A stretch of 64,000 bases of DNA from an uncultured beta proteobacterium (GTDB taxonomy: Bacteria; Pseudomonadota; Gammaproteobacteria; Burkholderiales; Casimicrobiaceae): NCBI GenBank assembly GCA_963708855.1, contig CAVPUM010000003.1:50407-114406 (forward strand), given 5' to 3'. Below the pieces are notes generated by a model. The model was not told the origin of the DNA. It made no database searches and saw only the letters and a program-made list of their open reading frames with translations. Positions 7,519 to 54,460 of this stretch are shown here, in pieces (positions within the stretch are counted from its first letter, which is position 1; every line of letters begins with the position of its first letter). The translations under genes and the position numbers were made by a program.

Positions 7519-7584
7519 CGCCGATTCCCTCCCTGTGGTCCCGCGCACCGGTGGCCGGGTGCAACGACCTGCCGGATATTGTAA

Positions 7585-8463
7585 CTAGAAGATGCTGTAG
7601 ACGATCAGCACGATCGCCACGATGCCGAGCGTCAGCGCCGTGCCGCCGACGACCCAGCCGAACCACTTCGCTTCGGCGGTCGGCGCCGGCGCTTCCTTCT
7701 CGGCGAGCCGGCCTTCCCTGACCAGCCGCTCGTATTCGGCCAGGCGCTCCGACTTGAGCTCGTGCTCGGAAATGCGCCCGGTGAAGATCACGGTGTCCAT
7801 CGGGAACTTCGCGGGCCGCACGTGGCCGTTGAAGAAGTGGAAGGTGAAGATGAAGCCGGCGGCGAGCAGCGCCTCCTCGCCGTGCACCAGCGCCGCGATG
7901 TTGAACATCCAGCCGGGCAGGAGCTGCGAGAAGAACACCGGGAACCAGAGCAGCAGCCCGGAGCCGCCGATGATCACCATCCCCCAGAACACCGCCCAGT
8001 AGTCGAACTTCTCCCAGTAGGTCCAGCGGTCGAACTGGGGCTGCGGCCCGGCGCCGACGAACCACTTGAAGTTGCGCACGATGTCGACGATGTCCTGCGG
8101 TTGCGGCACCAGCGAGTCCGGGCCCCAGAGGAGCGGCAGGACGCCGCCGCGCGCGATCGCCTTCGACAGCAGGAGGACCACGTGGCTCGAGAACACGAGG
8201 ATCATCACGCACGCGCAGATCCGGTGAATGACGCCGGCGCTCTCGAACCCGCCGAGGATGCGCGCGAGCGTCGCGGCCCACGGCTCGTCCGCGTACAGAA
8301 GCGGCAGGCCGGTCAGCGCGCAGCCGACGAAAGTCAGCATCAGCCCCGCGTGCATGACGCGCTGGGGCGCCGTGAAGCGCCGGTAGTAGCGCTGCGCGGG
8401 ACCGGCGGTGCCGGCCGCGACGCCGGCCGCCGGAGCAGCCGGATTACCCGTAGCGATCGCCAT
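7585..8463 (-). CDS. b-type cytochrome membrane subunit (FdnI/HydC, PF01292-like)
   Basis: ATG 8463 shares one base with the upstream TGA (TGATG). Multiple hydrophobic helices carry His in VMHAG, VIHRI, LVHGEE, FTFHFF. Confidence 0.7.
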   Translation of the reverse strand: MAIATGNPAAPAAGVAAGTAGPAQRYYRRFTAPQRVMHAGLMLTFVGCALTGLPLLYADEPWAATLARILGGFESAGVIHRICACVMILVFSSHVVLLLSKAIARGGVLPLLWGPDSLVPQPQDIVDIVRNFKWFVGAGPQPQFDRWTYWEKFDYWAVFWGMVIIGGSGLLLWFPVFFSQLLPGWMFNIAALVHGEEALLAAGFIFTFHFFNGHVRPAKFPMDTVIFTGRISEHELKSERLAEYERLVREGRLAEKEAPAPTAEAKWFGWVVGGTALTLGIVAIVLIVYSIF

Positions 8464-9720
8464 CAATGCCTTTCGTCACGTTTGCGGCCGCCCCCGAACT
8501 TGACGGCGAGCTCGCGATAGAGCCAGAGGATCGAGTGGAGGCCGAAGAACGCGAACACGCCGAACAGCAGGAACTCCATGAACATGGCGGCGTAGTAGTA
8601 GAGGGGATCGCGGTTCCTGTCGTGCCGGTTCGCGTGCGGATCGATGTTGGCGAAGTTCGCGCCCGCCCCGGCGTGGCAGGCCTGGCATGTCTTGAGCCTG
8701 TTCTCCTTCGACACCTTCGACGCGGGGTTCGCTGCCGGCAGCACCTCGTGCGCGCCATGACAGGAGGCGCAGGTCGCCACCCGCGCGTAGCCGAGTGCCG
8801 TCACCTGGCCGTGGAACGTGTTGCGGTAGGTCGATATGTAATCGGCATGGCAGTTGCCGCATTCCTTGATGACCTCGGTCTGGAAGGACGGCTTGTCGTG
8901 CTCCTGGATCGCGTGCGCGCTGTGGCAGTCCGTGCATCCGGGCGCCGCGAGCATGCCCTCCTGGCGCAGCTTGCCGTGCATGCTCTGGACGTACGCCTCG
9001 CGCTCCTTCTTGTGGCAGCTGCCGCAGGTGTCCGGGATCCGGGCGCGATGGGTGCGGCTCTCCGCTTCGCCCTTGGCGCGGATGTCGTGCGCGCCGTGGC
9101 AGTTCGTGCAGGTGGGCGCCGAAGCCTGCGCCGCACCCTGGAGCGCCTTGCCGTGGATGCTGTCGTGGAACTTGCTGCCGATGTTGCCGCCGGGCAGCTT
9201 GCCCTTGGCCACGACGGCATCGCTGCCGTGGCACTTGCCGCAGGTGGCCTCGACGTTCGCGTGATTCGTGCGCGAATCCTCGCCCTTTGCCCGCTTGATG
9301 TCGTGCGTGCCGTGGCAATCCGTGCAGGTGGCGGCGACGGCGTTGCCGCCCTTGCGCGCCAGCGCCGTGCACGGTCCCCGCGTACTCCTTGACCGCCTTG
9401 CTCGTGGCAGGTCGCGCAGTTGACCGGCTTCAGCTTGTCGGGATGCGGGAGCTTCGTCGGCCGAGACATCCGCGTGGCAGTCGGTGCATTTCAGCTTGAG
9501 TTCGCCGTGCACCGACGCGCCGAACTTCGCTCCGTCGACGGCGATCGACTTGCCGCCCGCGCCCTTGGCGTCGGCGGCGGCATGGCACATCTGGCAGGTT
9601 TCGTTCGGGTTCGGGGGCGCCGCCGGGGCTGCCGCCCGGGTTGCTGCCGGCGCGGAGGCGGCGGCAGCGAGGCAGAAGACAGCCGCACAGGGCCTGAAAT
9701 ATTGTTTTGGCGAGAATCAT
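8463..9720 (-). pseudogene. 11-haem cytochrome c with C-terminal membrane anchor, frame-disrupted (about 4 breaks; may be assembly indels)
   Basis: ATG 9720 and leader MILAKTIFQALCGCLL. Motifs CQMCH, CTDCH, CATCH, CTDCH, CGKCH, CTNCH, CGSCH, CTDCH, CGNCH, CASCH, CQACH. C-terminal helix FMEFLLFGVFAFFGL. The colinear reading needs frame changes near 9670, 9455, 9400 and 9370. Confidence 0.7.
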
Positions 9721-10923: not shown

Positions 10924-14628
<3,705 letters not shown>

Positions 14629-14785
14629 GGCGGGCGATGGAGGCGGATTCGAGTCTTGGATTCTAGCATTGGCAGCGACCCCGTCCGTGGCGCCCGGGCA
14701 CCGGATGCCCGACCCGGCGGACCGGTTATAACGGCCCAACCAACGAGCCTAACGCGCCGCAATCCCGCGTGTTAAATTGATCGCC

Positions 14786-22761: not shown

Positions 22762-22835
22762 TGGAGCGGGTGAAGGGAATCGAACCCTCGTCGTAAGCTT
22801 GGGAAGCTTCTGCTCTACCATTGAGCTACACCCGC
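22762..22835 (-). tRNA. tRNA-Gly (anticodon CCC)
   Basis: 74-nt cloverleaf. Acceptor GCGGGTG/CACCCGC, D-arm GCTCAATGGTAGAGC, anticodon loop TTCCCAA, T-arm GAGGGTTCGATTCCCTT, discriminator T, encoded CCA. Confidence 0.95.
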
Positions 22836-25149: not shown

Positions 25150-27175
<2,026 letters not shown>

Positions 27176-27246
27176 TGAGCATCGTCGAACGGCGCCACGC
27201 GACGATTTACGGTCGACCGGGAGCCCCGTCGTACCTGTCTCGCATC

Positions 27247-28094
27247 ATGGATGCTTTCCTTCTGACCAACGAGGTGCCGGTTCGGCTCGGCGTCTTCCTC
27301 GGCCTCTTCGCGACGATGGCCGTGTGGGAGCTCGCGGCGCCCCGGCGCGCCCTGCAGCGAGCGCAAGGCTCTGCGCTGGACGAACAACCTCGCGCTCACC
27401 GTCCTGAACAGCGTTCTGGTGCGGGCGATCCTGCCGTTGGCGGCGATCGGCGTCGCCGGATTCGCCGCCGAGCGCGGCATGGGCGTGCTCAACGTCTTCA
27501 CCCTGCCCTATGCCTGGGCCATCGTGGTCTCGGTGCTGGCGCTCGACGCTCGCCATCTATCTGCAGCACCTGATGTTCCATGCGGTGCCGCTGTTCTGGC
27601 GCCTGCACCGCGTCCACCATGCGGACCTCGACTTCGACGTGACCACGGGCGCCCGCTTTCATCCCATCGAGATCCTGCTGTCGATGCTGATCAAGTTCGC
27701 CGTGATTCTCGTGCTGGGCCCGCCGGCCGTGGCGGTGCTGATCTTCGAGATCCTGCTCAACGCGACGTCGATGTTCAACCACGGCAACGTTCGCCTGCCG
27801 GCGCGCATCGACCGGGTACTGCGCTGGCTGGTGGTCACGCCGGACATGCACCGCGTCCACCATTCGATCGATCCCCGCGAGACGAACAGCAACTTCGGGT
27901 TCAACGTGCCGTGGTGGGACCGCCTGTTCGGCACCTACCGGGCGCAGCCCCAGGCCGGCCACGAGGCGATGACGATCGGCATCGAGCAGTTCCGTGAGCG
28001 GCGGGAGCTGTGGCTCGACCGGATGCTGCTGCAACCGTTTCGCCCTGACAGCGGCACCTACCCGATCGGGCGGCCGCGTGAGCGCGACGGCTGA
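27247..28094 (+). pseudogene. fatty acid hydroxylase/sterol desaturase superfamily membrane protein, frame-disrupted (2 breaks)
   Basis: Histidine boxes (LQHLMFH, HRVHHAD, MHRVHHS). The N-terminal two segments lie in other frames. Confidence 0.7.
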
Positions 28095-30358: not shown

Positions 30359-31027
30359 TCAGGCGCGCCCGGTGGGCGGTGATTCCCCCAAAATCCGCAG
30401 TGCGGCGTGGGCCGCGCCGAAGCCGTTGTCGATGTTGACGACGGCGAGTCCCGACGCGCAGCTCGCGAGCGCGGCGTGCAGCGCCGTGCGGCCGCCCTCG
30501 GCGACGCCGTAGCCGACCGAGGTCGGCACCGCGATCACCGCGCACGGCACAAGGCCCGCCAGCACGCTGAACAGCGCGCCCTCCATGCCCGCCACGGCGA
30601 TCACCACGCGATGCCGGCGGATGGCGTCGAGGTGATCCATGAGCCGCCACAATCCCGCGACGCCCACGTCGGCGAGGAGCGTCGCCACTTCTCCCTCGAA
30701 CGTGAGCGTGCGGGCCGCTTCGCGCGCGACGGGCAGGTCCGACGTGCCGCCGCACACGATCGCGACCCGGCCGCTGGCGCGCGGCGCCGGCAGTGCGCCG
30801 AGGATCGCGGTGCGCGTGACCGAATCGTAGTCGAGCGCGTTTCGCATCGGCGCCGAGAGGCGGCTGAACTTGCGCGGTCCGAGGCGGGTGAGCAGCAGCC
30901 GCTGCCCCAGCTCGACGGCATGCGCGAGGATCGCGTCGATCTGCGCCGCGGACTTCGGGTCGCACAGCACCGCTTCGCTCGTCCCGGTGCGCCCGGCACG
31001 CTGCCAGTCGACCCGGAAATCAGTCAT
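30359..31027 (-). CDS. larB: nickel-pincer cofactor biosynthesis protein LarB (PurE-like carboxylase/hydrolase)
   Basis: VAIVCGGTSDLPVA, VIAVAGMEGAL, PTSVGYG. ATG 31027 overlaps the larE end by 8 nt. Confidence 0.85.
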   Translation of the reverse strand: MTDFRVDWQRAGRTGTSEAVLCDPKSAAQIDAILAHAVELGQRLLLTRLGPRKFSRLSAPMRNALDYDSVTRTAILGALPAPRASGRVAIVCGGTSDLPVAREAARTLTFEGEVATLLADVGVAGLWRLMDHLDAIRRHRVVIAVAGMEGALFSVLAGLVPCAVIAVPTSVGYGVAEGGRTALHAALASCASGLAVVNIDNGFGAAHAALRILGESPPTGRA

Positions 31028-31835
31028 CGGCGAGCCGACGCAGGAACGCCGCACCCCGCGCGTAGGGGCGCACGCCGGCGAACACGCGACCGTCCCGGCG
31101 GCAGGCATCGGCGCCGATGTTGCGGGCGATCGCGCCCGCCGCGGCGTCGCGCGCCACCGCGAGCTCGATCACGATGCCCGCCTGCGTCACCCGACAGCGC
31201 AACACCGCCTCGCGTCCAAGGCGTGCCGCGAGACTGCTCTCCACGGTATCGATAAAGGCGAGGTCTTCCGGCGCGATGGCGATCCCCGTTTCGACGCGAC
31301 TCGCGAGGCACGGTTGCGCGGGCAGCCGCTCGAGATCCGGCAGCCCGAGGCTCGCGGCAAGCGCGTAGACGGCTGCCTTGTCGATGCCCGCCTCGACATA
31401 CGGATGCACGACGCCGTGTTCGGCCGCGGCGCGCAACCCTGGCCGGAAATCGTCGAGATCGTCGCGGTTGGTGCCGGAAGCGATCGGGTCGGGTGTCGCT
31501 TCGCGGATTCGCGCATACAGGTTCGACTTGCAGTAGTAGCAGCGATCGACGGGATTCGCCCGATAGCGCGCATCGGCCTGCTCGCCGGCGTCGAGCAGCA
31601 CCAATGGCCATCCGTGCCGCGCCGCGTGCGACTCCACCCGTCCGCGTGCCGCCGCCGGCACCGCCGGCCCGGTCGCGTGGTACATCGTGGCCCGCGTGCG
31701 CGAAAGTCGCCACGCGACGTGCGCGAGCGTCATCGAGTCCACGCCACCGGAAACGGCGAGCGCGAGCCGCTCGTGGCGGTCCAGGCGTGCCACGAGCCGC
31801 GCGAGCACCTCGCTGGCGGGAAGCGATGCGTTCAT
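31020..31835 (-). CDS. larE: ATP-dependent sacrificial sulfur transferase LarE (PP-loop)
   Basis: PP-loop AVSGGVDS, NPVDRCYYCK, GTNRDDLDDFRPG. ATG 31835. Confidence 0.85.
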   Translation of the reverse strand: MNASLPASEVLARLVARLDRHERLALAVSGGVDSMTLAHVAWRLSRTRATMYHATGPAVPAAARGRVESHAARHGWPLVLLDAGEQADARYRANPVDRCYYCKSNLYARIREATPDPIASGTNRDDLDDFRPGLRAAAEHGVVHPYVEAGIDKAAVYALAASLGLPDLERLPAQPCLASRVETGIAIAPEDLAFIDTVESSLAARLGREAVLRCRVTQAGIVIELAVARDAAAGAIARNIGADACRRDGRVFAGVRPYARGAAFLRRLADD

Positions 31836-31844
31836 GAGGCCTCC

Positions 31845-31975
31845 CGCCGGGCCGCCCCAAGGGAGGGCTTGCTCCCCATCGGGGGGCAGCGAACACCAGG
31901 CCGAAGGCCGCAGGACAGCCGAAGGCTGGTCCCGCGAAGCGGGATGCGGCTTTGCCGCACAAAGTGAGCGTGGGG
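31845..31975. repeat. GC-rich hairpin array (REP-like) in the larC-larE spacer
   Basis: 18-nt head CGCCGGGCCGCCCCAAGG, then five consecutive short stem-loops: GGGAG/CTCCC, GGCC-GAA-GGCC, CAGCC-GAA-GGCTG, TCCCGC-GAA-GCGGGA, TGCGGC-TTT-GCCGCA. Confidence 0.7.
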
Positions 31976-31977
31976 GC

Positions 31978-33277
31978 TCATTTGTCCGTGCCTTCGAGCG
32001 CCCGCGCCGCGACGGCGGCACGCTTGCGCCGGCGCGCGCCGAGCCCGGGTGTCGCGACGACATCGTCCTGCGCCGCCTTCGCGGAGCGCTCGCCCCCGGG
32101 TCGCAGGGCGACCTTCGCGCTCATCGAGGCGCCGTCGACCATCGCCGTGACCTCGGTTCGGCGCAGCACGCGGCGGCGCTCCTCGCGCCAGCGCAGCCCC
32201 AGCGTCGATGTTTCGGTGAAGCAGGCCCGCGCGATCGCATCGGCCGCATGCGGTTGCACCAGCAAGCGGAAATCGGCGAGCGGCCGTCCCTTCTTGCCCT
32301 GCCGCGTGCCCACCGACACGTCGACGACGCCGGGCTCCCCGCGCAGGCGGTCCGCGGCCACGGCGATCTCCTCGCCCGTCATGTCGTCGACGTCGAACTC
32401 CAGCACCGCCACCGACGTCGGCGTCGGCGTCGGAAGCAGAGCCGCGCTCCAGCACCAGCGCGCGCAGGATGTTCGGCAACCCCGGCAGCGTGCGCGTGCC
32501 CGCGCCACAGCCCACATGCAGGAGGCGGCCCGCGTCGCGTCGCGTGCCGCACTGTGCCGCAGGCACCAGATGCCGAAGGATCGCGGCGCCCGTCGGCGTC
32601 ACCCGCTCGCCGGCGATGCCGTCGTCGTGCCATGGATAGCCGGTCAACAGCATGCTCGTGGCAGGGGTCGGCACGGGCAACAGCCCATGCGCAGTGCGCA
32701 CCGTGCCGCCGCCCAGCGGAAGCGCCGACGCGGTCCAGCGCGCGCCGTCGAGCTGCGCCGCGATGCATCCGGCCGCGACCACGTCCAGCAGCGAATCCCA
32801 ATCCGCGAGCTCGTGGAAGTGCACTTCGTCGACGGGGATACCGTGCACATGAGCCTCGGCGTCGGCGAGGAGCGCCAGCAGCGCCAATGCGTGCGTGCGC
32901 GTCGCCGCGCTCAGCGGCGCGGCGACCAGTCTGCCGCGCAGCGCTGTGTACGCAGTGCCTGCATGCTCGTGCGCCATCCCCCCGTGCACGCCGATCTCAC
33001 TGCGTCGCCGATAAACGCCCGCGTCAGGCGCGCTCGACAGACCGAAGCGCCTGGCGCGCAAGCCGCCATTCGACGCTTCGACGAACTCCGGCGCCCGCTC
33101 GTCGGCGGATCGCACCGCGGCCAGTTCGGCCAGCACGGGCGCTTCGAGTCCGGGCAGCGCATCGACCATCGCCGCGACGAACATGTCGCCGGCCAGTCCG
33201 CCGACGAGATCGAGGTGAATCGCGAGCGATGCGGGCGGGAGCGCCACGGTTCCGTCAGCCGACGACGGGCACGACAT
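31978..33277 (-). pseudogene. larC: nickel insertion protein LarC, N- and C-terminal domains in different frames
   Basis: N-terminal IHLDLVGGLAGDMFVAAMVDA...PNILRALVLE in one frame. LLPTPTPTSVAVLEFDVDDMTGEE...TSTLGLRWRE in the +1 frame. Start is ATG 33277 or GTG 33247. Confidence 0.8.
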
Positions 33278-34557
33278 ACGGCCCTTCGGGCACGACCGCG
33301 ATCGCTGCATCGGCCGCGCGCGCGACCGCCGTGGCGAGTGCGGCATCGATCGAGGCGATCGATTCGACGCCCGTGAGGCTGCGCTCTTCGTCGTCGAGGC
33401 CGGTCGTGTAGAGCTGCACGTGCCCCGCTCGCATCGACTTCAGCTGCATCTCGGTCTGCCATTCGTCGACGTCGGCGAGGCTCTTGGCGAGCAGCGTTTG
33501 CAGGAACGCGTCCGGGCCGAGCGAGCGCAGCCGCCCCTGCGCCGCCCGGAACTCGGGCGAGCCGAAGCCCTCGGAGCAGGCCGAGGCGACGATCAGCGTC
33601 CCGCCCGGCTCCAGGATGTCGAGCGGGGTCACCATGCCCTTCACGGTCTGGTAGTAGGTCTTGTCGAGGGGATGCCCGGCGGCAGAGGTCACGATGGTCG
33701 AAAAGCGCCGGCCCACCGGCACCCGCGTGCTCTCGGCGACGAAGGCGACCGCGGCGAGATGGCTGGCGATGACCTCGCCGAAATTGACGTGAACGAGATC
33801 GCGGTCCTCGTCGATCACCGTGTTGACGGCATAGACCTCGCCCAGCATGCGCACGATCTCGAGCTGCTCCTCGTGCAGCGGATTGCCGCTGAGGTTGCAC
33901 TGGATCGCCGCCGGGTCCTCCATGAAGCGCGCGCTGTGAAACGTGCGAATGGTGTCCTCGTGCGCGACACCCGGCGCGATGACCTTCCTCCCGCCCGAGT
34001 AGCCGGCCATGAAATGCGGCTCGACGAGACCGGTGGCGATGCGCAGGTCCGCCTCGACGAAGCGGCGGTCGAGCTTCACCGGCGTGCGGCGCCCGGAGGT
34101 CACGCCGAAATCGACGTGCGCCGCGGCGTCCCGCGCGAAATGATTCTCGACCTTCACCGTGGCGAGAACCCAGGGGTCGCCGACGACTTCCGCGAGCTCC
34201 GCACCCTCGTTGGGCCGATGCAGGCCGGTCGCGACCAGCACGGTGATGCCGTCGCGGGGCATGCCCGCCGCCAGCATGCCCTCGATCAGCGGCCGCAGGA
34301 ACAGGTGATTCGGGACCGGCCGCGTGATGTCGCAGATCAGGATGCAGGCACTCCTGCGCTCACGTACCAGCGTCGCCGTACGCAGCCGCGCCGATGGGGC
34401 GCGCCAGCGCATCGCGCACGGCCGCCCGCGGATCGGGCAGTTTCGCCAGCGGCCGCTTGCCGATCACGGTCGCCCGCGCACCGCGCGGCAGCCGGATCTC
34501 CAACCCGGACTTGCCGTACAGGATGTCGACGGTTTCCCGCGCGTGAGTCTCGCTCAT
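33255..34557 (-). pseudogene. larA: LarA-family nickel-pincer-dependent 2-hydroxyacid racemase/epimerase, one frame break near 34390
   Basis: MSETHARETVDILYGKSGLEIRLP (ATG 34557), then ICDITRPVPN, VATGLHRPN, EPHFMAGYSGGRK. 434 aa when joined. Confidence 0.85.
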
Positions 34558-34625
34558 CGATCCCTCGCCTGGCCGTGAAAATGCTAGCGTACCGCTTTGC
34601 CGCCGCAGAAGGTAGCATAGCCACA

Positions 34626-35873
34626 ATGACAGGCTCCGGATTCGCCGACCGCTTCCTTGCCGAGGACGAGACGCGCGAGATCGTACGCGCGGGCCTCGCG
34701 TCGCTGTCGCTCGCGGGCAAGCGCGTGCTGTTCATCATTCCCGACGGCACGCGCACGATGCCGATGCCGCAGTTCTTCGCGCTGTTCCAGGAAATGCTGG
34801 GCGGCAAGGTCGCGGCGCTCGACTTCCTGGTGGCGCTCGGCACGCACCCGCCGATGGATGACGCAGCGCTCTCGCGGCTGGTCGGCGCAAGCGTCGTCGA
34901 CGGCCGCGCGGGCAACTCGCACATCTTCAACCACGAATGGGCCGATCCGGCGACCTTCGCCACGATCGGTGAGATTCCGTCCGCCGAAATCGCGCAACTG
35001 TCCGGCGGACGGCTGGAGCAGCCGGTCACCGTGTCGCTGAACCGGCGCATCTTCGACTACGACCAGATCGTCATCTGTGGCCCGGTGTTCCCGCACGAGG
35101 TCGTCGGCTTCTCGGGAGGCAACAAGTACTTCTTCCCCGGCATCGCCGGCGCCGACGTGATCAATTTCACGCACTGGCTCGGTGCCCTCATCACCAACTT
35201 CGAGATCATCGGTGCCGGCTACACGCCGGTGCGCGCCGTCATCGACCGCGCGGCGTCGATGGTGACGGTGCCCACCGCGTGCTTCGCGCTCGTCGTCACG
35301 CCCGCGGGCCTGGCCGGCCTCTACTTCGGCTCGGCGCGCGAGGCCTGGGAGAAGGCGTCCGCGCTGTCGGCAAAGCGGCACATCGTCTGGCTCGATGCGC
35401 CCGTGCGCCAGGTGCTGTCGGTGATGCCGCCGATGTATGCCGACATCTGGACCGCGGGCAAGGGCATGTACAAGATCGAGCCCGTCGTCGCCGACGGCGG
35501 CGAGGTGATCATCTATGCACCGCACATCAACGAGGTGAGCTTCACGCACGGGCACCTGATCGAGGAAGTCGGCTACCACTGCCGCGACTATTTTCTCGCC
35601 CAGCCCGAGCGCTTCGCCGGTTACCCCGGCGGCGTGCTGGCGCACTCGACGCACGTGAAGGGCCAGGGTCGCTACGACGCGGCGACCGGCATCGAGACGC
35701 CGCGCGTGACGGTGACGCTCGCCACCGGAATCCCGCCCGAGCGCTGCCGGCGGATCAACCTCGGCTACCGCGACCCGGCGTCGATCGATGTCGCGGCCTT
35801 CGGCGGACGCGAGCGCGAGGGCATTCTGCTCGTGCCGCGCGCAGGTGAAATGCTCTATCGGCTCAAGCGCTGA
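34626..35873 (+). CDS. second, divergent LarA homologue (DUF2088 family), substrate unknown
   Basis: Intact 416 aa. LarA-type positions are retained (IIPDGTRTMP, VALGTHPP, FPHEVVGFSGGNKYF, INFTHW) but overall it is very different from the 33255-34557 product. Confidence 0.8.
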   Translation: MTGSGFADRFLAEDETREIVRAGLASLSLAGKRVLFIIPDGTRTMPMPQFFALFQEMLGGKVAALDFLVALGTHPPMDDAALSRLVGASVVDGRAGNSHIFNHEWADPATFATIGEIPSAEIAQLSGGRLEQPVTVSLNRRIFDYDQIVICGPVFPHEVVGFSGGNKYFFPGIAGADVINFTHWLGALITNFEIIGAGYTPVRAVIDRAASMVTVPTACFALVVTPAGLAGLYFGSAREAWEKASALSAKRHIVWLDAPVRQVLSVMPPMYADIWTAGKGMYKIEPVVADGGEVIIYAPHINEVSFTHGHLIEEVGYHCRDYFLAQPERFAGYPGGVLAHSTHVKGQGRYDAATGIETPRVTVTLATGIPPERCRRINLGYRDPASIDVAAFGGREREGILLVPRAGEMLYRLKR

Positions 35874-35963
35874 CCGGGACTCGGCCGTTCGGTTCGGCGG
35901 GCAACCATCGGGGTTTTCCTTTGTGTTCGCATTTGCGCGTTTTCGATCGATTGACAACCGATT

Positions 35964-35997
35964 GTTTGCGGTTCAAAGTCGTTTGCGGTTCAAAGTC
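35964..35997 (+). repeat. perfect 17-bp tandem direct repeat in the promoter region of the ABC operon
   Basis: GTTTGCGGTTCAAAGTC x2 (35964-35980, 35981-35997), directly after a TTGACA at 35951-35956 in a locally AT-richer tract. Confidence 0.85.
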
Positions 35998-36050
35998 GCA
36001 CCCCGCTGCCTTCCCCGGCCGCCGAAGACCACCCAAGAGGAGACGCTACG

Positions 36051-37796
36051 ATGACGACGAGGCTGATGCTGACCGCCCTTGCCAGCGCAACGCTGGCAGT
36101 CTTTGCCCAAGGCGCGCAGGCGGACGCCGCTGCCGCCAAACGCTGGATCGACCAGGAATTCCAGCCTTCGGTGCTGAGCAAGGACGCTCAGATGAAGGAG
36201 ATGGAGTGGTTCATCAAAGCCGCTGCGCCTTTCAAGGGACTCGAGGTCAACGTGCTTTCGGAGACGATCCCGACCCACGAATACGAGGCCAAGACGCTGG
36301 CCAAGGCGTTCGAGGAGATCACCGGCATCAAGGTCAACCACCAGCTGCTCGGCGAGGGTGAGGTCGTGCAGGCGGTGCAGACGCAGATGCAGACCAACCG
36401 CAACCTGTACGACGCCTACATCAACGACAGCGACCTGATCGGCACCCACTCGCGGCTGCAGTCGGCGGTCAACCTGACCGACTGGATGGCCGGCGAGGGC
36501 AAGGACGTGACGAACCCGATCCTCGACGTCAAGGACTTCATCGGCATCTCGTTCACCACCGGCCCGGACGGCAAGGTCTGGCAGCTGCCCGACCAGCAGT
36601 TCGCCAACCTCTACTGGTTCCGCAAGGACTGGTTCGACCGCGCCGACCTGAAGGCCAAGTTCAAGGAAAAGTACGGCTACGACCTCGCCGTGCCGGTGAA
36701 CTGGAGCGCCTACGAGGACATCGCCGAGTTCTTCAGCGTGCAGGTCAAGGAGATCGACGGCAAGCGGATCTACGGCCACATGGACTACGGCAAGCGCGCC
36801 CCCGACCTCGGCTGGCGGATGACCGACGCCTGGCTGTCGATGGCCGGCGCCAGCAGCAAGGGCCTGCCGAACGGCCGGCCGATCGACGAGTGGGGCATCC
36901 GCATGCCGGCGGGCTCGTGCAACCCGCAGGGCGCCTCGGTGACGCGCGGCGGCGAGACCAACGGCCCGGCTTCGGTCTACGCGATCGCCAAGTGGGACGA
37001 ATGGCTGCGCAAGTACGCGCCGCCCGGTGCTGCCGACTACGACTTCTACCAGTCGCTGCCGGCGCTGGCGCAAGGCAACGTCGCGCAGCAGGTGTTCTGG
37101 TACACCGCGTTCACCGCGTCGATGGTCGCGCCCAAGAAGGACGGCAACAACACGGTCGACGACAAGGGCATGCCGCTGTGGCGGATGGCGCCGAGCCCGA
37201 AAGGCTCGTACTGGCAGGACGGCATGAAGCTCGGCTACCAGGACGCCGGTTCATGGACGCTGTTCAAGAGCACGCCGGTCAATCGCCGCAAGGCGGCCTG
37301 GCTGTACGCGCAGTTCGTCGTCAGCAAGACGGTCGACACGAAGAAGAGCCACGTCGGGCTGACCTTCATCCGCGACAGCACGGTGCGCCACGCCTCGTTC
37401 ACCGAGCGCGCGCCCAAGCTCGGCGGCCTGGTCGAGTTCTACCGTTCGCCCGACCGGGTGATGTGGACGCCCACCGGGGTCAACGTGCCCGACTATCCCA
37501 AGCTCGCGCAGCTGTGGTGGCAGCAGATCGGCGACGTCAACTCCGGCGCTTTCACGCCGCAGCAGGCGATGGACCGCCTGGCCGGCGAGATGGACCAGGT
37601 GATGGCGCGCATGCAGGAGGCCGACGAGAAGGCCAAGGTCTACGGCGGCTGCGGCCCGCGGCTGAACAAGCCGGTCGACGCGAAGGAGTGGCTCGGCAAG
37701 CCCGACGGCCCGAAGGCCAAGCTCGCCAACGAAAAGCCCAAGGGCGTGACGATGCCCTACGAGGAGATCGTCAAGCGCTGGGCCGCCACGAAGTAG
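36051..37796 (+). CDS. large family-1 ABC substrate-binding protein (GlpV-like size class)
   Basis: GAGGAG RBS. Signal peptide MTTRLMLTALASATLAVFAQGAQA. Intact 581 aa. Followed by two ATPases, two permeases and a DUF2160 gene. Confidence 0.8.
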   Translation: MTTRLMLTALASATLAVFAQGAQADAAAAKRWIDQEFQPSVLSKDAQMKEMEWFIKAAAPFKGLEVNVLSETIPTHEYEAKTLAKAFEEITGIKVNHQLLGEGEVVQAVQTQMQTNRNLYDAYINDSDLIGTHSRLQSAVNLTDWMAGEGKDVTNPILDVKDFIGISFTTGPDGKVWQLPDQQFANLYWFRKDWFDRADLKAKFKEKYGYDLAVPVNWSAYEDIAEFFSVQVKEIDGKRIYGHMDYGKRAPDLGWRMTDAWLSMAGASSKGLPNGRPIDEWGIRMPAGSCNPQGASVTRGGETNGPASVYAIAKWDEWLRKYAPPGAADYDFYQSLPALAQGNVAQQVFWYTAFTASMVAPKKDGNNTVDDKGMPLWRMAPSPKGSYWQDGMKLGYQDAGSWTLFKSTPVNRRKAAWLYAQFVVSKTVDTKKSHVGLTFIRDSTVRHASFTERAPKLGGLVEFYRSPDRVMWTPTGVNVPDYPKLAQLWWQQIGDVNSGAFTPQQAMDRLAGEMDQVMARMQEADEKAKVYGGCGPRLNKPVDAKEWLGKPDGPKAKLANEKPKGVTMPYEEIVKRWAATK

Positions 37797-37908
37797 CCCG
37801 CCTCGGCCCGAGGCACGGCCGCGGATTCGGGCGGGGGCGCGCGCCGCGCCCCTGCCCGGCAGTGGCCCGTGGCCGTCGCCGATCGCTCCAGAGCCTGCGC
37901 CCACGGAC

Positions 37909-38973
37909 GTGACCCTCGAACTCCGCCAGGTCGGCCTGCAGGTCGGCGCCGATGTCCACATCCATCCGACCACGCTGGCGCTGGAGCCGGGCCGTTTCAA
38001 CACGTTGCTCGGCGAGACGCTCGCCGGCAAGACCACGCTGCTGCGGCTGATGGCCGGTCTGGTGAGGCCGACCACCGGCGAGCTCTGGTTCGGCGGTCGC
38101 GACGTCACCGGCGTGCCGGTGCAGCGGCGCCACGTCTCGATGGTCTACCAGCAGTTCATCAACTATCCGAACCTGTCGGTGTTCGAGAACATCGCGTCGC
38201 CGCTGAAGGTGACCCGCGCGCCGGCCGGCGAGGTCCGCGAGCGCGTGGGACGCATCGCCGAACTGCTGCGCCTGACGCCGCTGCTCGACCGCCGGCCGAG
38301 CGAGCTCTCCGGCGGCCAGCAGCAGCGCACCGCACTCGCCCGCGCACTGGTCAAGGATGCCGAGCTGGTGCTGCTCGACGAGCCGCTGGCCAACCTCGAC
38401 TACAAGCTGCGCGAGGCGCTGCGCGACGAGTTGCCGCGCCTGTTCGCCGACCGCGGCTGCACCGTCGTCTACGCGACCACCGAGCCGGCCGAGGCGCTGC
38501 TGCTCGGCGGCCACGTCGCGACGCTGCACCAGGGCCGGGTGACGCAGTACGGCCCGGGCGCCGAGGTCTACCGCGATGCCGGCCGACCTGATCACCGCGC
38601 GGGTGTTCTCCGACCCGCCGATCAACGTCGCCGCGGCCCGCAAGGAGGGCGGCGAGGTCGTGCTCGTCGACGGCGTGCGCTGGCCGGCGCCGCCGGCGCT
38701 GCGCGCACTGCCCGACGGCGAGATCACCGTCGCGTTGCGCCCGCACCATGTGCGCCCGGCCGGGCATGCCGGCGTTGCCGGTGTCCGGGCGCGTGCTGAT
38801 CTGCGAGATCAGCGGGTCCGAGAGCGTCGTGCACTTCACGCTCGCCGGCACCACCTGGGTCTCGCAGGCGCACGGCGTGCGGAACCATCGCGATCGGCGA
38901 GCAGGCGCACTTCGCGCTCGACGTCGAACGCTGCCTGTACTTCGACGCCGCCGGCGCTCGCCTGGCGGCCTGA
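37909..38973 (+). pseudogene. ABC transporter ATP-binding protein 1 (GlpS-like, degenerate Walker A), frame-disrupted (about 3 breaks)
   Basis: LLGETLAGKTTLL, LSGGQQQRTALARAL, LLDEPLANLD. The C-terminal regulatory domain is spread over other frames. GTG 37909, TGA 38971-38973. Confidence 0.75.
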
Positions 38974-38985
38974 GGAGCGAGGGCG

Positions 38986-40067
38986 ATGGCGCGCATCCGC
39001 CTCGAACAGCTGCGCCACAGCTACCGGCCGCAGCCGCGCGCCGAGGTCGACGCCGACTGGGCCCTGCGCGACCTCGACCTCGAGTGGGCCGACGGCGGCG
39101 CGTACGCGCTGCTCGGCCCCTCGGGCTGCGGCAAGACCACGCTGCTGAACCTGATCTCGGGGCTGCTGACAGCCCACGCAGGGTCGCGTGCACTTCGACG
39201 ACCGCGACGTCACTGCGCTCGAGCCCGGCCAGCGCAACATCGCGCAGGTGTTCCAGTTCCCGGTGGTCTACGACACGATGACCGTGTTCGACAACCTCGC
39301 GTTCCCGCTGCGCAACCGCGGGCTGGGCGAGCCCGAGGTCCAGCGCGCGCGTGAACGAGATCGCCGAGATGCTCGACCTGGGCGCCGCGCTGGGCCAGCG
39401 CGCCAGCGGCCTGACGGCCGACGGCAAGCAGAAGATCTCGCTCGGCCGCGGCCTGGTGCGCAGCGACGTCGCGGCGATCCTGTTCGACGAGCCGCTGACG
39501 GTGATCGACCCGCACCTGAAGTGGCGGCTGCGCAGCAAGCTCAAGGAGCTGCACCAGCGCGTGCGTCGCACGATGATCTACGTGACGCACGACCAGACCG
39601 AGGCGCTGACCTTCGCCGACCAGGTGGTGGTGATGCTCGACGGCCAGGTCGTGCAGTCGGGCACGCCGGTCGAGCTGTTCGAGCGGCCGGCGCACACCTT
39701 CGTCGGCCACTTCATCGGCTCGCCGGGCATGAACCTGCTGCCCTGCGAGATCGACGCCGCCGGCGTGCCGCGCTTCGCCGGCCACGCGGTGGCCACTGCT
39801 TCGTGGCGATCTCGCCGGCGCGCGCGGCAAGCGGACCGAGATCGGCGTGCGGCCGGAGTTCGTGCGCTTCGCCGGCGACGGCATCCCGGTGCAGATCGAG
39901 CGCGCCAGCCGACAGTCGGGCGCTTCCACATCGTCGATGCGCGCCACGGCGAGCACCTGATCAAGCTGCTCGTCGCCGAGGGCCAGCCCGTGCCCGAAGG
40001 CCAGGGGCACCTCGCCTTCGACGCTCAACGCACCCGCGTCTACGCCGACGGCTGGGCAGTGGCCTGA
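38986..40067 (+). pseudogene. ABC transporter ATP-binding protein 2 (UgpC/MalK-like), frame-disrupted (>=4 breaks)
   Basis: [67 protein letters not shown]. Segments lie in three frames. Confidence 0.75.
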
Positions 40068-40073
40068 TCGACC

Positions 40074-40938
<865 letters not shown>

Positions 40939-40941
40939 ACG

Positions 40942-41743
<802 letters not shown>

Positions 41744-41759
41744 CCGGGGAGGGCGCGCG

Positions 41760-42061
41760 ATGCAACCGATCGTCGAAGCGGGTCTCGGCTGGATGGCCTG
41801 GACCTGGCAGACCGCGCTGTTCTTCGGCGTGATCGCGCTGCTGCTGGTCGCTGATGGGCGTGCTGGGAGTGGCGGTCGCCCGGCGGCGGGCCGCGCCGCG
41901 GCATCCTCGGGCTGGTCACGACGCGCGGCGACCGCCTCTTCATCTCGCTGCTCGCGGCCGGCTACATCCACCTGCTGTGGCTGGCCTTCTTCGGCGCGCC
42001 GCTGTGGGGCGCGAGCGCGCTCGCTCTCGTGGTCGCCGCGCTGGTCTTCCGCCGCGTCTGA
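41760..42061 (+). pseudogene. DUF2160-type small integral membrane protein, frame-disrupted
   Basis: MQPIVEAGLGWMAWTWQTALFFGVIALLLV, then (other frame) GILGLVTTRGDRLFISLLAAGYIHLLWLAFFGAPLWGA. The span length is not a multiple of 3. Confidence 0.6.
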
Positions 42062-42103
42062 CTCGCCCACCTCGATGAGCCAACGGCACCACCCCGCATC
42101 GCG

Positions 42104-42171
42104 CCCGCCCGCGGCCACCCTGGCGGCGGCACCCGCGCGGAAGTGCCGCGACTAGGAGGCAGAGTCGCACG
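42104..42171 (+). repeat. 68-bp GC-rich repeat, copy A
   Basis: CCCGCCCGCGGCCACCCTGGCGGCGGCACCCGCGCGGAAGTGCCGCGACTAGGAGGCAGAGTCGCACG. 61/68 identical to copy B, same orientation. Contains a GCGGCAC...GTGCCGC hairpin and AGGAGG. Confidence 0.85.
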
Positions 42172-42349
42172 AAGTGGCGGCAAAGCCATTCGAAGGCCAT
42201 CCGCATTTGCACATCCCGCAGTCCTCCATTGAAGTCATGGAGATTCATCCGTTGTCCGGGATGTAAAGCCACCGGTCGGGGCGGCTGCCTCAGGCAGGCT
42301 CGCCCCCTGCGGCAAACCGACAAGTGCGCCGGGATAGAGCCCATCGAGC

Positions 42350-50908: not shown

Positions 50909-53026
50909 GGCCTGCTCACGACAACCCTCTCGGCATTCCCGCCCCGGGCACCGGTTCGCTTTTTCGGCGGCTTCACCTTCGCCTTGTCCGCCGCAGCCTT
51001 TGGCGCGCGCGGCAAGCGCCAGCCTGCGCACGCGCCGGATGTCCGCATCCGAGAACGGCCCGTTGACGCCGGAGATGGCCGCGAGCTTCATCCCGTGCTT
51101 GCGGCCGAGACGATAGATCTCGCGCACCTTCTCCCATTCGATGTTGCGGCCGACGGTGAAGTTGTCGAACTTTCCCTCCAGGGCGAGGACAATCGTTTCG
51201 GCGAGGCAGGCATAGGCCACGTTCCTGGGTAGCCCGATGTTCTTCATCGACACCTGCCCGGGCAGCAGGATCTCGCCGGACTCGATCACCAGCACGTCCG
51301 GACGCTTGGCCACTTCCTCCGGCGGCAGATCGAGCGGGCGCGCGACGTCGGTGATCACGCATCCGGGCTTGACCTGCATGATGTCGAGGATCTTCTTGCC
51401 GGCCCCCGAGGTCGCGGTCACGATCATGTCCATGCCGGCGATGTCCGTGTCGGCGCGCGAGGACAGGAACAGCCTGGCGTCGGGGGTCTCCTTCAGGATC
51501 GACCCCTTGAGCGAGAGCAGCTTCGCGGTTTCGGGAGACACCAGGTAGACCTCCTCGGCGACCATCGCCAGCAGGCGCGCGCAGACCGAGCCGATGGCCC
51601 CGGTGGCGCCCACCACCATCGCCTTGAAGCGCACTTTCTGACCGCGCGCCGGCATGGGCACCAGGCCGAGGCGCAGCACGGCATCGTGCGCGGCCCACAG
51701 CGCCCCCGAGGCGCTGTAGCTGTTGCCGGTGGTGATGGGCAGCGGCGCGCGCTTGGACACGGTGAGCCCCGCGTCGCCGACCACCTTGGTGAAGGCGCCG
51801 AGGCCCATGATCTGCGCACCGAGGCTCTTGGCGATCCCGGCGGCGTCCAGCAGGCGGCGGTAGGTGAACTCCGGGTTGTGGCTCATGATTTCCTGGGGCG
51901 TGCCGCCCACGGAGATGAGCCAGCCTTCGGCTTCCACGCCGGTGGGCGACTTGATGCCCGTCACCTTCGAATAGACGAACGGCGGCGCGTAGGCCATCAC
52001 TTTCTCCACCGCGTCCATGAAGATGGGCGGGGACACGTGGGAAAGCAGCTCGATGGGCTTCACGTTCTTGAAATACTCCTGCGACAGCGGATGGATGACG
52101 AAGGCGAACCGGTTGACGCGCTTGAAGCCGTTGGGATAGACGATCCGCGGCTCCAGCTCGAGGCTGGTGATGATCTCCAGATAGTCGTCCTCGAGGATCT
52201 CCGCGGGCGCCTTCTCGGTCGCGGCGATGATCATCGCGTCGAGGAGGCTCGGGCTCAGCACGTGATCGAACATCACGGGCGCGCCGTCGACCACCATGTT
52301 GACGCCCTTCTTCCTGAACTGCGCGATGCGCCCGTCGTTCACCGTCGACGTGACGATCGTCTTGCCGGCGAGCTCCTCGGCGGCAAAGCCGTCCAGCTCG
52401 TGCACGGGGGCGACGATGACCGTCGCATCCCGCATGGCCTGGCGCAGCACGAACTTCGTCCACGCCTTGACCGGGGCCGACGACATCAGGCCGTCGGGGG
52501 CCCAGTCGAGCACGTAGTGCGCGCCGCTGGTGTAGAGCTCCAGCGCCTCCAGCGAGGTCAGCATCTTGGGCACGCCGAGCTGCAGCAGGGCGTCGGCGAA
52601 CTCGAGATTCTGCGTGTACTCGGACATGGCCAACGCCAGCTTGTAGTTGGTTCGTCCCGAAAAGAACAGGACGCGGGCGTTGTTGAAATAGTCGCCCAGC
52701 TTGATCTGGACGTGGCGCAGCGCCCACTCCTGCAGGATGTCGTTCAACCGTCCGCCGGTGGTCACGGGAACGCGCGTGACGGCATTCTTCATCCGCGCGC
52801 TGTCCTTCTCGACATAGCGCCGCGATCCGACCGCATAGCTGTCCTTGACCACACCCAGGCCGATCGCGTCGGCATGCTGTTCCCAGTGCTTCAGCAGGTT
52901 CACGGCCTTCGCGGTGCTGCCGTTCGTGCCCAGCCTCCGGACGTCGAGTTTCTGCCGCAGGAACCGGGCGACGAAGGCGAAATCCTGGTCGCCCGCACCC
53001 AGGCTGACACCGATCACTTTTTTCAT
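50905..53026 (-). pseudogene. fusion protein: N-terminal uncharacterised 'quinate 5-dehydrogenase'-annotated domain + C-terminal acyl-ACP reductase (AAR)-like domain; one frame break near 50995
   Basis: ATG 53026. The C-terminal half aligns with cyanobacterial AAR (FAFVIHPLS, GLGAFTKVVG, TTGNSYSA, VVGATGAIGS, YACLAETIVLALEG..NFTVGRN). The main frame never stops (runs to 49028). A +1 shift gives ...AAADKAKVKPPKKRTGARGGNAERVVVSRP-TAG at 50905. Confidence 0.7.
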
Positions 53027-53200
53027 TCCATCCCCGCGCCATGCACGATGCCCAAGACGCTAGTGTACGGGGGCACTCCGGTCCCCGCGCCACCGCGAAT
53101 CTGCTCGAGATCAAACAGTTGACGAATGTTTCCGGCAGCGCTCTGGTCCGGCCGGCCCGATTGGTGCAATCTTGCAGGAAGTGAAACGCGAGACACGGGA

Positions 53201-54460
53201 ATGATGATGATCGAGGTGCCGGGCATCGTGAGTGACGTGGTGCGTTCCGTCGGGCTGTCGACGGCGATGAAAGCGGCGGGCGTCGTGACGGGGCTGTTGC
53301 CGATTCCGCAGCCGATGCTGCTGGTCGGACCGGGGGCCAGCGGCCGCCTGGGGCAGGCCCTCTGCGGCTTCGGGCACCGGAAGATCCTGGTCGTGACGGA
53401 CCGCACCATCGCGCAGATGGGACTGCTCGACGGCCTGACCAAGGCATTGTCCGCGGGCGGTACCGCGCACGTCGTCTTCGACGCGATCACGCCGGACGCC
53501 CCGATCCCGGTGATCGAAAAGGGCATCGCGTTCTACGAGAAGCACCGCTGCGACGCCGTCGTCGCGTTCGGCGGCGGCTCCCCGATGGACGCGGCGAAGA
53601 CGATTGCGTTGGCCGTCGCCAACAGGAAGCACCCCAGGAAGCTCGTCGGCTACTTCAAGGGCCTCCGTGCGCCGGCGCCGATCTATGCCGTCCCGACCAC
53701 GGCGGGCACCGGTTCCGAGGTGACCGTGGCCGCGGTCGTCTCGGACCCTGAAACCAACCGGAAACTGGTCATCGCCGATACGCGCCTCGTGCCGACGATG
53801 GCAGCGCTCGATCCCTCGCTGATGACCGGCTTGCCACGCCACGTCACGGCCGCAACCGGCATGGACGCACTGACCCACGCCGTCGAAGCCTTCGTCGGCC
53901 AGTGGTCGACCGCCTACACCGATCGCATGGCGCTCGCGGCGGTCGGCATGATTTACGAGAACCTGCGCATCGCGTACAGGAACGGCAGGAATCTCGCGGC
54001 GCGCGAGCAGATGGCGCTGGCGGCGACGTACGCCGGCCTGGCGTTCACGCGGGCCAACGTCGGTTATGTCCACGCCATCGCGCACCAGCTGGGCGGCAAA
54101 TACCACACGCCTCACGGCCTGGCCAACGCGATCATGTTGCCGCACGTGCTGGCGTTCCTGAGCCCCGCGATCACGAAGAAGCTGGCCGTCCTCGCAGTGC
54201 GCGCCAAAGTAGGCAAAGCAGGCGAGCGGCCCGCCGTTCTGGCGAAGAAGTTCCTGGCCTCGGTCGAAACGCTGAATCGTGACCTCGGGATTCCGCGGCA
54301 TCTGGCGGCACTGCGCGAGGAGGACATTCCGGAACTGGCCAAGGCCGCCTGCTGGGAGGCGGACACCAACTATCCGGTGCCGCGCTACATGTCGCCGGAA
54401 ACCTGCGCGGATCTGATCCGCCAGGTCCTGCCCACGGCCGATCGGCGCAGGAAACGCTAG
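53201..54460 (+). CDS. iron-containing (group III) alcohol dehydrogenase
   Basis: FGGGSPMDAAK, PTTAGTGSE, GMDALTHAVE, HAIAHQLGGKYHTPHG. ATG 53201. Confidence 0.88.
   Translation: MMMIEVPGIVSDVVRSVGLSTAMKAAGVVTGLLPIPQPMLLVGPGASGRLGQALCGFGHRKILVVTDRTIAQMGLLDGLTKALSAGGTAHVVFDAITPDAPIPVIEKGIAFYEKHRCDAVVAFGGGSPMDAAKTIALAVANRKHPRKLVGYFKGLRAPAPIYAVPTTAGTGSEVTVAAVVSDPETNRKLVIADTRLVPTMAALDPSLMTGLPRHVTAATGMDALTHAVEAFVGQWSTAYTDRMALAAVGMIYENLRIAYRNGRNLAAREQMALAATYAGLAFTRANVGYVHAIAHQLGGKYHTPHGLANAIMLPHVLAFLSPAITKKLAVLAVRAKVGKAGERPAVLAKKFLASVETLNRDLGIPRHLAALREEDIPELAKAACWEADTNYPVPRYMSPETCADLIRQVLPTADRRRKR

Follow-up and report, generated by a model that had tools for sequence, protein, structure and literature searches.

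The stretch of DNA considered here comprises 64,000 nucleotides of contig CAVPUM010000003.1 (GenBank assembly GCA_963708855.1) from an uncultured betaproteobacterium of the Casimicrobiaceae, and we refer to the whole of it as the window. Between positions 30359 and 35873 it carries five lar genes for the synthesis and use of the nickel-pincer (NPN) cofactor of the LarA racemase family. The minus strand is occupied, from 34557 down to 30359, by larA1-larC-larE-larB with overlaps of a few bases at larA1/larC and larE/larB, while larA2 runs divergently on the plus strand, a gene order and orientation already given in a preliminary description of this DNA and borne out by the coordinates. We consider it likely that this is an ordinary NPN cofactor locus of an uncultured Casimicrobiaceae-like soil betaproteobacterium, with a Sar/LarAH2-like LarA1 and a GntE-clade LarA2, and that the frameshifts it shows as assembled are probably assembly errors. 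Its features are as follows.

30359 to 31027, minus strand: larB, carboxylase/hydrolase that acts on nicotinic acid adenine dinucleotide (NaAD), the first step of NPN synthesis; intact; NCBIfam NF033503 (LarB) 254 bits, cutoff 175.
31020 to 31835, minus strand: larE, ATP-dependent sulfur insertase; intact, 271 amino acids (aa); TIGR00268 (LarE) 222.8 bits, cutoff 150.
31978 to 33277, minus strand: larC, CTP-dependent nickel insertase; reading frame divided in two by a single extra base near 32412-32414.
33255 to 34557, minus strand: larA1, predicted Sar/LarAH2-like short-chain 2-hydroxyacid (lactate-type) racemase; frame-broken, 433 aa when read through.
34558 to 34625, no strand: divergent spacer of 68 nt between larA1 and larA2.
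34626 to 35873, plus strand: larA2, GntE-clade LarA homologue, predicted hexonate C2-epimerase; intact, 415 aa; Pfam Lar_N 81.2 bits.

The contig is high in GC, and its closest relatives are metagenome-assembled genomes (MAGs) of uncultured betaproteobacteria (Casimicrobiaceae/Burkholderiales), the nearest of which encode LarA2 proteins 96% (L001), 95% (L038) and 93% (L002) identical to the one described here. The head-to-head layout, larB-larE-larC-larA1 facing larA2, is kept in about 30 related betaproteobacterial species-level MAGs (80 loci were fetched with LarA2). Pfam scans of the window's open reading frames (ORFs) returned no nickel transporter, lactate permease or Crp-type regulator, in keeping with the earlier remark that larR, a lactate permease and a nickel transporter are missing, and an Rfam scan of the whole window yielded only a tRNA and a thiC thiamine pyrophosphate (TPP) riboswitch, leaving the lar region without an RNA element.

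The biosynthetic genes are readily recognized, with LarB, LarE, LarC1 and LarC2 all scoring above their NCBIfam cutoffs (LarC1 161 bits, cutoff 90; LarC2 99-102 bits, cutoff 50). The larB frame, which opens with MTDFRVDW at 31027, overlaps the larE stop by 8 nt and is 91% identical to its counterparts in L001 and L002. Both larB and larE are uninterrupted, whereas larC as assembled is not (a +1 insertion at about 32413), so that positions 2-235 of the PF01969 profile fall in the ORF at 31832-33346 and positions 243-359 in the ORF at 31978-32517; its start codon is uncertain, with ATG codons at 33277, 33313 or 33346. LarE contains an SGGVDS PP-loop at residues 29-34 as well as C99-Y-Y-C102 and C176. 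This CXXC-C triad is the hallmark of the [4Fe-4S]-dependent, non-sacrificial LarE class of the T. maritima type (PMC9283937), and with SGGXDS and CXXC-C both present, LarE here is by its motifs a member of that class. The NCBIfam label "sacrificial sulfur transferase" that attaches to this gene (31020-31835, minus strand) would be misleading, given the CXXC-C triad of the catalytic [4Fe-4S] class. By family membership, LarB would carry out the carboxylation and hydrolysis of NaAD known from the established pathway, LarE of the [4Fe-4S] CXXC-C type would insert two sulfurs, and LarC would insert nickel; the finished cofactor would then be delivered to two apo-enzymes, LarA1 and LarA2, whose genes are transcribed back to back.

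The two LarA proteins had been called highly divergent, and they do align with one another over only 170 residues of the N-terminal domain, at 30% identity (52.8 bits). Both nevertheless keep all NPN-binding and catalytic residues; since they do, both would be expected to use the proton-coupled hydride transfer of LarA. Only LarA1 resembles a lactate racemase (LarA2 reaches 66 bits with the LarA equivalog NF033504, cutoff 460), and neither protein belongs to the single-His (Asn) LarA subfamily (described in PMC12611868). Of the two outcomes that the preliminary description would have taken as a refutation, both proteins being lactate racemases and NPN-binding residues being lost, neither is seen. 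The preliminary description had pictured one cofactor factory serving two enzymes of unknown specificity. The first half of that picture stands, with one larBCE set beside two LarA homologues of different clades, but "unknown" is outdated because LarA1 groups with Sar/LarAH2 (PDB 9EIA) and LarA2 with the GntE hexonate 2-epimerases (PDB 4NAR), which makes the kinds of specificity assignable.

The closest solved relative of LarA2 is PDB 4NAR (214 bits, E 3e-62, residues 16-414, 36.5% identity), which is GntE2 (LarAH20) of T. maritima, an enzyme experimentally shown to be a D-gluconate/D-mannonate 2-epimerase (PMC7583248). An AlphaFold2 (AF2) model of LarA2, built from a shallow alignment and used for fold ranking rather than active-site geometry, likewise has 4NAR as its top Foldseek match (TM 0.78), and its 19 best matches are all LarA-family proteins (predicted local distance difference score, pLDDT, 66; predicted TM score, pTM, 0.68). 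The motifs quoted earlier for LarA2, LGTHPP and FPHEVVGFSGGNKY, are present. Alignment to 4NAR places R43, K167 and H183 in the NPN-binding set, which is near-invariant in 62 homologues (one K-to-R at 167), and D40, H74, H157 and K279 in the catalytic set. The correspondence with GntE2 extends beyond these positions: R43 is equivalent to R41, H157-E158-V159 to H154-E155-S156, K167 to K164, H183 to H180, G278-K279 to G286-K287, and A339-H340 to A351-H352. The published signature of GntE-type hexonate 2-epimerases (LarAH groups 18-20), given as "E, V, A, H" in PMC11770544 and taken here from that paper and PMC7583248, comprises E-V/S after the second catalytic His, W in helix 11 and A/V (A-H) in helix 14, and LarA2 displays an E-V loop after the second catalytic His, W275 in a W...GK helix 11, and an A-H helix 14, the A-H pair being mapped onto LarA W358/T359 by sequence alignment to 4NAR rather than by superposition. 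LarA2 shares with GntE2 (Desguin et al. 2020, PMC7583248) the Arg, Lys and His that bind NPN, its catalytic residues (Asp, His, His and Lys), the acidic residue directly after the second catalytic His, and the W...G-K and A-H helices. They differ in the loop itself (E-V in LarA2, E-S in GntE2) and in being identical over only about one third of their residues; LarA2 is also mesophilic, its activity is predicted, and its gene lies beside an NPN biosynthesis operon and a second LarA rather than among hexuronate genes.

In 24 of 36 non-betaproteobacterial loci, a LarA2 homologue of 60-70% identity is flanked by genes of the hexuronate pathway, namely UxaC (507 bits), UxaE (PF16257, 466), a D-mannonate oxidoreductase of the short-chain dehydrogenase/reductase (SDR) family (NF006132, 350), Gnd (761) and a PfkB-type kinase. 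These loci come from Acidobacteriota, Chloroflexota and others, including the cultured Anaerolinea thermolimosa. This context is that of the Thermotoga-type hexuronate route, so that the Acidobacteriota and Chloroflexota orthologues share with GntE2 an operon of the same type (uxaC, uxaE, mannonate oxidoreductase, gnd), and it agrees with the published context of LarAH group 18, in which an SDR (36%), 6-phosphogluconate dehydrogenase (32%), a ribokinase-type kinase (16%) and UxaC (12%) recur (Desguin 2020 Table S1). Group 18, the "putative hexonate epimerase" of NF052594, is also the best NCBIfam model for LarA2, although the match covers residues 11-329 only and the group is itself putative. 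The active-site columns of LarA2 are identical in 40 betaproteobacterial and 22 hexuronate-context homologues, save for the residue before the catalytic Lys, which is Gly in 39 of the 40 betaproteobacterial proteins and mostly Ala in the hexuronate-context ones.

On this evidence we lean towards LarA2 being a predicted D-mannonate <-> D-gluconate epimerase, an assignment that comes from homology and the context of orthologues, not from local context; the enzyme would most likely interconvert D-mannonate and D-gluconate, or a closely related pair of hexonates. Several observations weigh against this. Hexuronate, gluconate and mannonate genes were sought in the window and in about 40 related betaproteobacterial loci, and none were found. 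The protein is only 36.5% identical to GntE2, and it falls below every NCBIfam equivalog cutoff, with a best score of 174.7 bits to NF052594 (cutoff 500); the NCBIfam scans gave no match labelled group 19 or group 20. Confidence in the AF2 model is moderate, and lowest near the active-site loops.

The alternative is that the betaproteobacterial LarA2 has another substrate, a different sugar acid or hydroxyacid, its gene having left the hexuronate operon and become tied to the lar operon in a new capacity. The missing hexuronate, gluconate and mannonate genes near larA2 fit such a history, as does the Gly that replaces the prevalent Ala before the catalytic Lys, and the published GntE1 may itself have a different native substrate (PMC7583248). 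However, GntE2 has Gly at this very position (G286), the remaining active-site columns are the same as in the hexuronate-context homologues, and specificity is usually retained at 60-70% identity across phyla, all of which leaves a change of substrate improbable in our view, though it deserves serious weight. In an extended version, a GntE-clade epimerase would have left its hexuronate operon and become firmly joined, by way of a conserved leaderless divergent promoter, to the NPN operon and a Sar-type racemase; the two enzymes would make up a dedicated NPN module, its GntE-like member serving some substrate or pathway different from the mannonate-to-gluconate shunt of the Thermotoga type. We regard this as less probable still.

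LarA1 is the more conventional of the two proteins. Its Pfam matches are to the NPN-binding domain Lar_N (DUF2088, PF09861; 146.7 bits) and to LarA_C (55.2 bits), and the read-through product matches PDB 9EIA/9EID, LarA of Isosphaera pallida, with 346 bits (E 2e-102, 43% identity), against 172 bits for LarA of Lactiplantibacillus plantarum. The motifs TGLHRP and EPHFMAGYSGGRK, quoted for it earlier, are present. It keeps D76, R79, H113, H181, K191, H207, Y302, Q303, K306, W366 and Q367; by alignment to 9EIA, R79, K191 and H207 are the NPN-binding equivalents of L. plantarum LarA R75/K184/H200, and D76, H113, H181 and K306 the catalytic equivalents of D72/H108/H174/K298. The I. pallida enzyme, Sar/LarAH2, for which residue roles are available (PMC11851776), is a broad-spectrum racemase of short-chain aliphatic 2-hydroxyacids, and LarA1 has equivalents of its Arg73, His107, His173, Lys183, His199, Tyr294, Gln295, Lys298 and Trp/Gln357. 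The two differ in that the first residue of the specificity loop is Phe in LarA1, as in L. plantarum LarA, and Leu in Sar, and in that larA1 is frameshifted as assembled. The specificity positions of LarA1 read F-M-W-Q, and its F-M loop together with the W-Q of the C-terminal helix fits the published "LAR" pattern of F, F, W, E/Q (PMC11770544). The best reading is that LarA1 is a predicted racemase of lactate or other short-chain 2-hydroxyacids, and it would racemize lactate as well as others of this kind. Counting against so specific an assignment, LarA1 reaches 329 bits with the NCBIfam LarA equivalog NF033504, under its cutoff of 460, and the loop after its second catalytic His, F-M, matches neither the L-M of Sar nor the F-F of LarA.

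The preliminary description called the locus complete, but as assembled it is not, since a single additional base, overlooked before, interrupts the frame of larA1 and another that of larC. In larA1 the extra base lies at about 34372-34374, and the frame that begins at 34557 stops after 65 codons at a TGA (34360-34362), the remainder of the gene continuing in the ORF at 33255-34412; a DNA alignment with eight relatives contains exactly one extra column in the window's larA1, near 34372-34374. In larC it lies at about 32412-32414, at the LarC1/LarC2 junction and beside a (CGTCGG)x3 repeat at 32416-32433. The frame-breaking larC base is absent from the relative in every alignment that spans the site, and in L002 LarC is a single ORF of 461 aa. 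Dropping one base per site restores a LarA1 of 433 aa, the exact length of more than 100 homologues (80-93% identity, full coverage), and a LarC of 455 aa. In three other metagenome runs, contigs that span these sites have one base fewer there, and between 32300 and 34650 their coding sequence contains no further single-base indel; contigs of four related runs were compared, a comparison that shows only that relatives lack the extra bases.

The damage is also not confined to lar genes. A plot of GC content at third codon positions (GC3) by frame shows switches of frame within many other genes of the contig, with metH spread over four frames (three breaks), thiC over two (one break), and about six breaks in the ATP-binding cassette (ABC) transporter genes downstream of larA2.

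10924 to 14739, minus strand: metH, frame-broken.
25289 to 27178, plus strand: thiC, frame-broken.
27175 to 28094, plus strand: fatty-acid-hydroxylase-family gene, frame-broken.
37909 to 42155, plus strand: glycerol-type ABC genes, frame-broken.

The GC3 frame plot suggests a single break in the fatty-acid-hydroxylase-family gene, whose N-terminal ORF is without a Pfam match. Related MAGs whose contigs have long-read-style "contig_N" names contain frameshifts in lar genes at other, differing positions, whereas NODE_/k141-style (SPAdes/MEGAHIT-like) assemblies have zero frameshifts in larA1, the assembler type being deduced from contig names alone. Because relatives are without the extra bases and because metH, thiC and the ABC genes suffer breaks of the same kind elsewhere on this contig, we take the extra bases in larA1 and larC to be most probably assembly errors, in a noisy assembly that was probably built from long reads alone. 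All five lar genes would then probably be intact in the organism.

Were the lesions real, larA1 and larC would be frameshift pseudogenes of a decaying locus from which no NPN could be made, and LarA2 would be left an orphan or depend on another larC elsewhere. The extra bases are, after all, present in the sequence as given, and both lie within or beside short repeats where replication slippage can occur; furthermore, among the public sequencing runs screened for the window, the best run contained only 0.15 of its words. Against this stand the same type of lesion in essential or conserved genes (three times in metH, once in thiC), the approximately 93-95% identity to closest homologues that the proteins retain apart from the frameshifts, with no sign of relaxed constraint, the fact that neither insertion is common to any relative or environmental contig, and the other random frameshifts in the same genes of related long-read-style assemblies. 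We therefore judge real decay to be unlikely. The larC break invites a different explanation. The LarC of L. plantarum arises through frameshifting where LarC1 and LarC2 join, and the extra base in the window lies within 2-3 codons of the start of the LarC2 model. Yet relatives are without the frame-breaking base in all spanning alignments, including the 461-aa ORF of L002; the site has neither a slippery nor a stop-pause context; the frame upstream of it continues for about 200 further codons with no nearby stop; and the linker is a GC-rich hexamer repeat of an indel-error-prone kind. Programmed frameshifting in larC is rejected, since no relative shares the break, and we regard it as hardly credible.

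The 68-nt spacer between larA1 and larA2, found at 34558-34625 with the length reported for it, was described as containing an inverted repeat. The two arms, ATGCTA (34581-34586) and TAGCAT (34613-34618), are indeed present and 26 nt apart, but such a pair is at chance level: there are 22 inverted pairs in 221 nt (6-nt seeds, arms of 6-20 nt), and a 68-nt stretch should by chance contain about 0.5 perfect 6-mer pairs. As an operator of a regulator co-controlling both divergent genes, ATGCTA-N26-TAGCAT has in its favor its location in the divergent spacer and the conservation of its right arm. The left arm, however, differs in L001, L038 and L002, the arms are just 6 nt long, and the distance from about residue 10 of LarA1 to the larA2 start varies from 95 to 254 nt among relatives (with one outlier of 414 nt). 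A TAnnAT -10 box kept at constant spacing to the ATG accounts in full for the conservation of the right arm. With arms this short, so many comparable pairs nearby and a variable left arm, we reject the repeat as a conserved operator and consider such a role very improbable.

What is conserved in the spacer may instead be a promoter. The right arm, TAGCAT, is a -10-like hexamer 7 nt before the larA2 ATG, with a weak -35-like TACCGC (34590-34595) 17 nt upstream of it, and a Shine-Dalgarno sequence for larA1, GAGGGA, lies on the minus strand at about 34562-34568. A TAnnAT starting 12-13 nt before the larA2 ATG occurs in 31 of about 32 head-to-head betaproteobacterial loci (31 of all 78 loci scanned), which leaves 6-7 nt between it and the ATG and no Shine-Dalgarno sequence; larA2 homologues in other phyla have GGAGG-type sites instead. 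A simple scan for sigma-70 promoters and terminators across 34300-36200 found nothing, and the -10-like box was recognized solely through comparison with relatives. This conservation suggests that TAnnAT is a candidate larA2 promoter giving a leaderless mRNA in this lineage, and larA2 appears to be transcribed leaderless from this box.

The second enzyme had also been linked, by implication, to an ABC importer encoded downstream on the same strand, and this link fails.

35893 to 42271, plus strand: glycerol-type ABC importer cassette; substrate-binding protein (SBP, 36051-37796), two ATPases, two permeases and a DUF2160-like small protein; about six frameshifts as assembled.

In L001 and L002 the genes downstream follow larA2 without the region 35893-42271, which is present in L038, and the cassette is absent downstream of larA2 in nearly all other relatives. 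Its 581-aa SBP is 80-93% identical across many Proteobacteria, where the neighbors are a GlpR-like DeoR regulator in 60 of 80 loci, GlpD in 52 (753 bits) and GlpK in 37 (842 bits). No LarA2 homologue occurs among these 80 transporter loci, and lar genes occur in one of them (L133). The cassette has an upstream region of its own, with TTGACA at 35951 followed by a perfect 17-nt tandem direct repeat at 35964-35998 (GTTTGCGGTTCAAAGTC, twice). With its glycerol-type context, its rarity in relatives and no LarA2 homologue in any of the 80 loci, the importer is rejected as a route of entry for the LarA2 substrate; judged by its sequence and neighbors, the cassette is an independent, predicted glycerol-type system and an unrelated insertion beside the lar genes. 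A search of the window for glpR, glpD, glpK and glycerol catabolic genes found none, the sole PDB match of the SBP was an uninformative generic sugar-binding protein (40.7 bits), and a literature search on DUF2160 and glycerol transporters found nothing usable. The 17-nt tandem repeat upstream of the SBP gene may be a DeoR/GlpR-type operator, with no glpR in the window. In L133 (2139-10713; Rhodospirillales MAG JADHSV010000027.1), a LarA1-type gene (58% identical) with larC, larE and larB lies about 3 kb upstream of the same SBP gene, an adjacency that echoes that of the window and may be coincidence.

Set beside larABCDE of L. plantarum, the locus has in common the three biosynthetic genes and a LarA in one operon. 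It differs in being without larD, larR, the lactate permease and the larMNQO nickel transporter, in having a LarE of the CXXC-C iron-sulfur type instead of the sacrificial single-Cys type of L. plantarum, in a LarA1 that scores below the LarA equivalog cutoff (329 vs 460), and in the second, GntE-clade LarA homologue attached divergently. GntE and Sar activities are already characterized, so that the locus is a further example of a known system. Specific to this lineage are that a Sar-like and a GntE-clade protein are stably paired, in divergent orientation, around one larCEB set in betaproteobacteria, that the GntE-like gene has lost its hexuronate context, and that larA2 probably has a leaderless promoter. 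Up to eight LarA homologues per organism, and the clustering of larAH genes with larB, larC and larE, are already documented (PMC7583248), and for that reason the current picture of NPN biology is unchanged. With this locus, a betaproteobacterial, probably aerobic soil and wetland lineage joins those organisms whose single NPN pathway supplies LarA-family enzymes of two clades, with a predicted function for each enzyme: short-chain 2-hydroxyacid racemase for LarA1 and hexonate 2-epimerase for LarA2. Its practical value is modest, consisting of a mesophilic GntE-clade candidate and a conserved candidate leaderless promoter, and it serves as a caution that frameshifts can hide in "complete" loci of noisy MAG contigs.

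Elsewhere in the window, four further features were recorded.

25153 to 25253, plus strand: TPP riboswitch directly upstream of thiC; 58.9 bits, above the gathering score.
22765 to 22835, minus strand: tRNA gene; 69.3 bits.
50973 to 53447, minus strand: long ORF of 824 aa with a strong coding signal (GC3) and no Pfam match.
6172 to 9716, minus strand: multihaem c-type cytochrome cluster with NapC/NirT-like and MtrC/MtrF-like domains and doubled CXXCH motifs, together with a cytochrome b561-like membrane protein.

The last of these, the cytochrome cluster at 6172-9716, may be an extracellular or periplasmic electron-transfer module.

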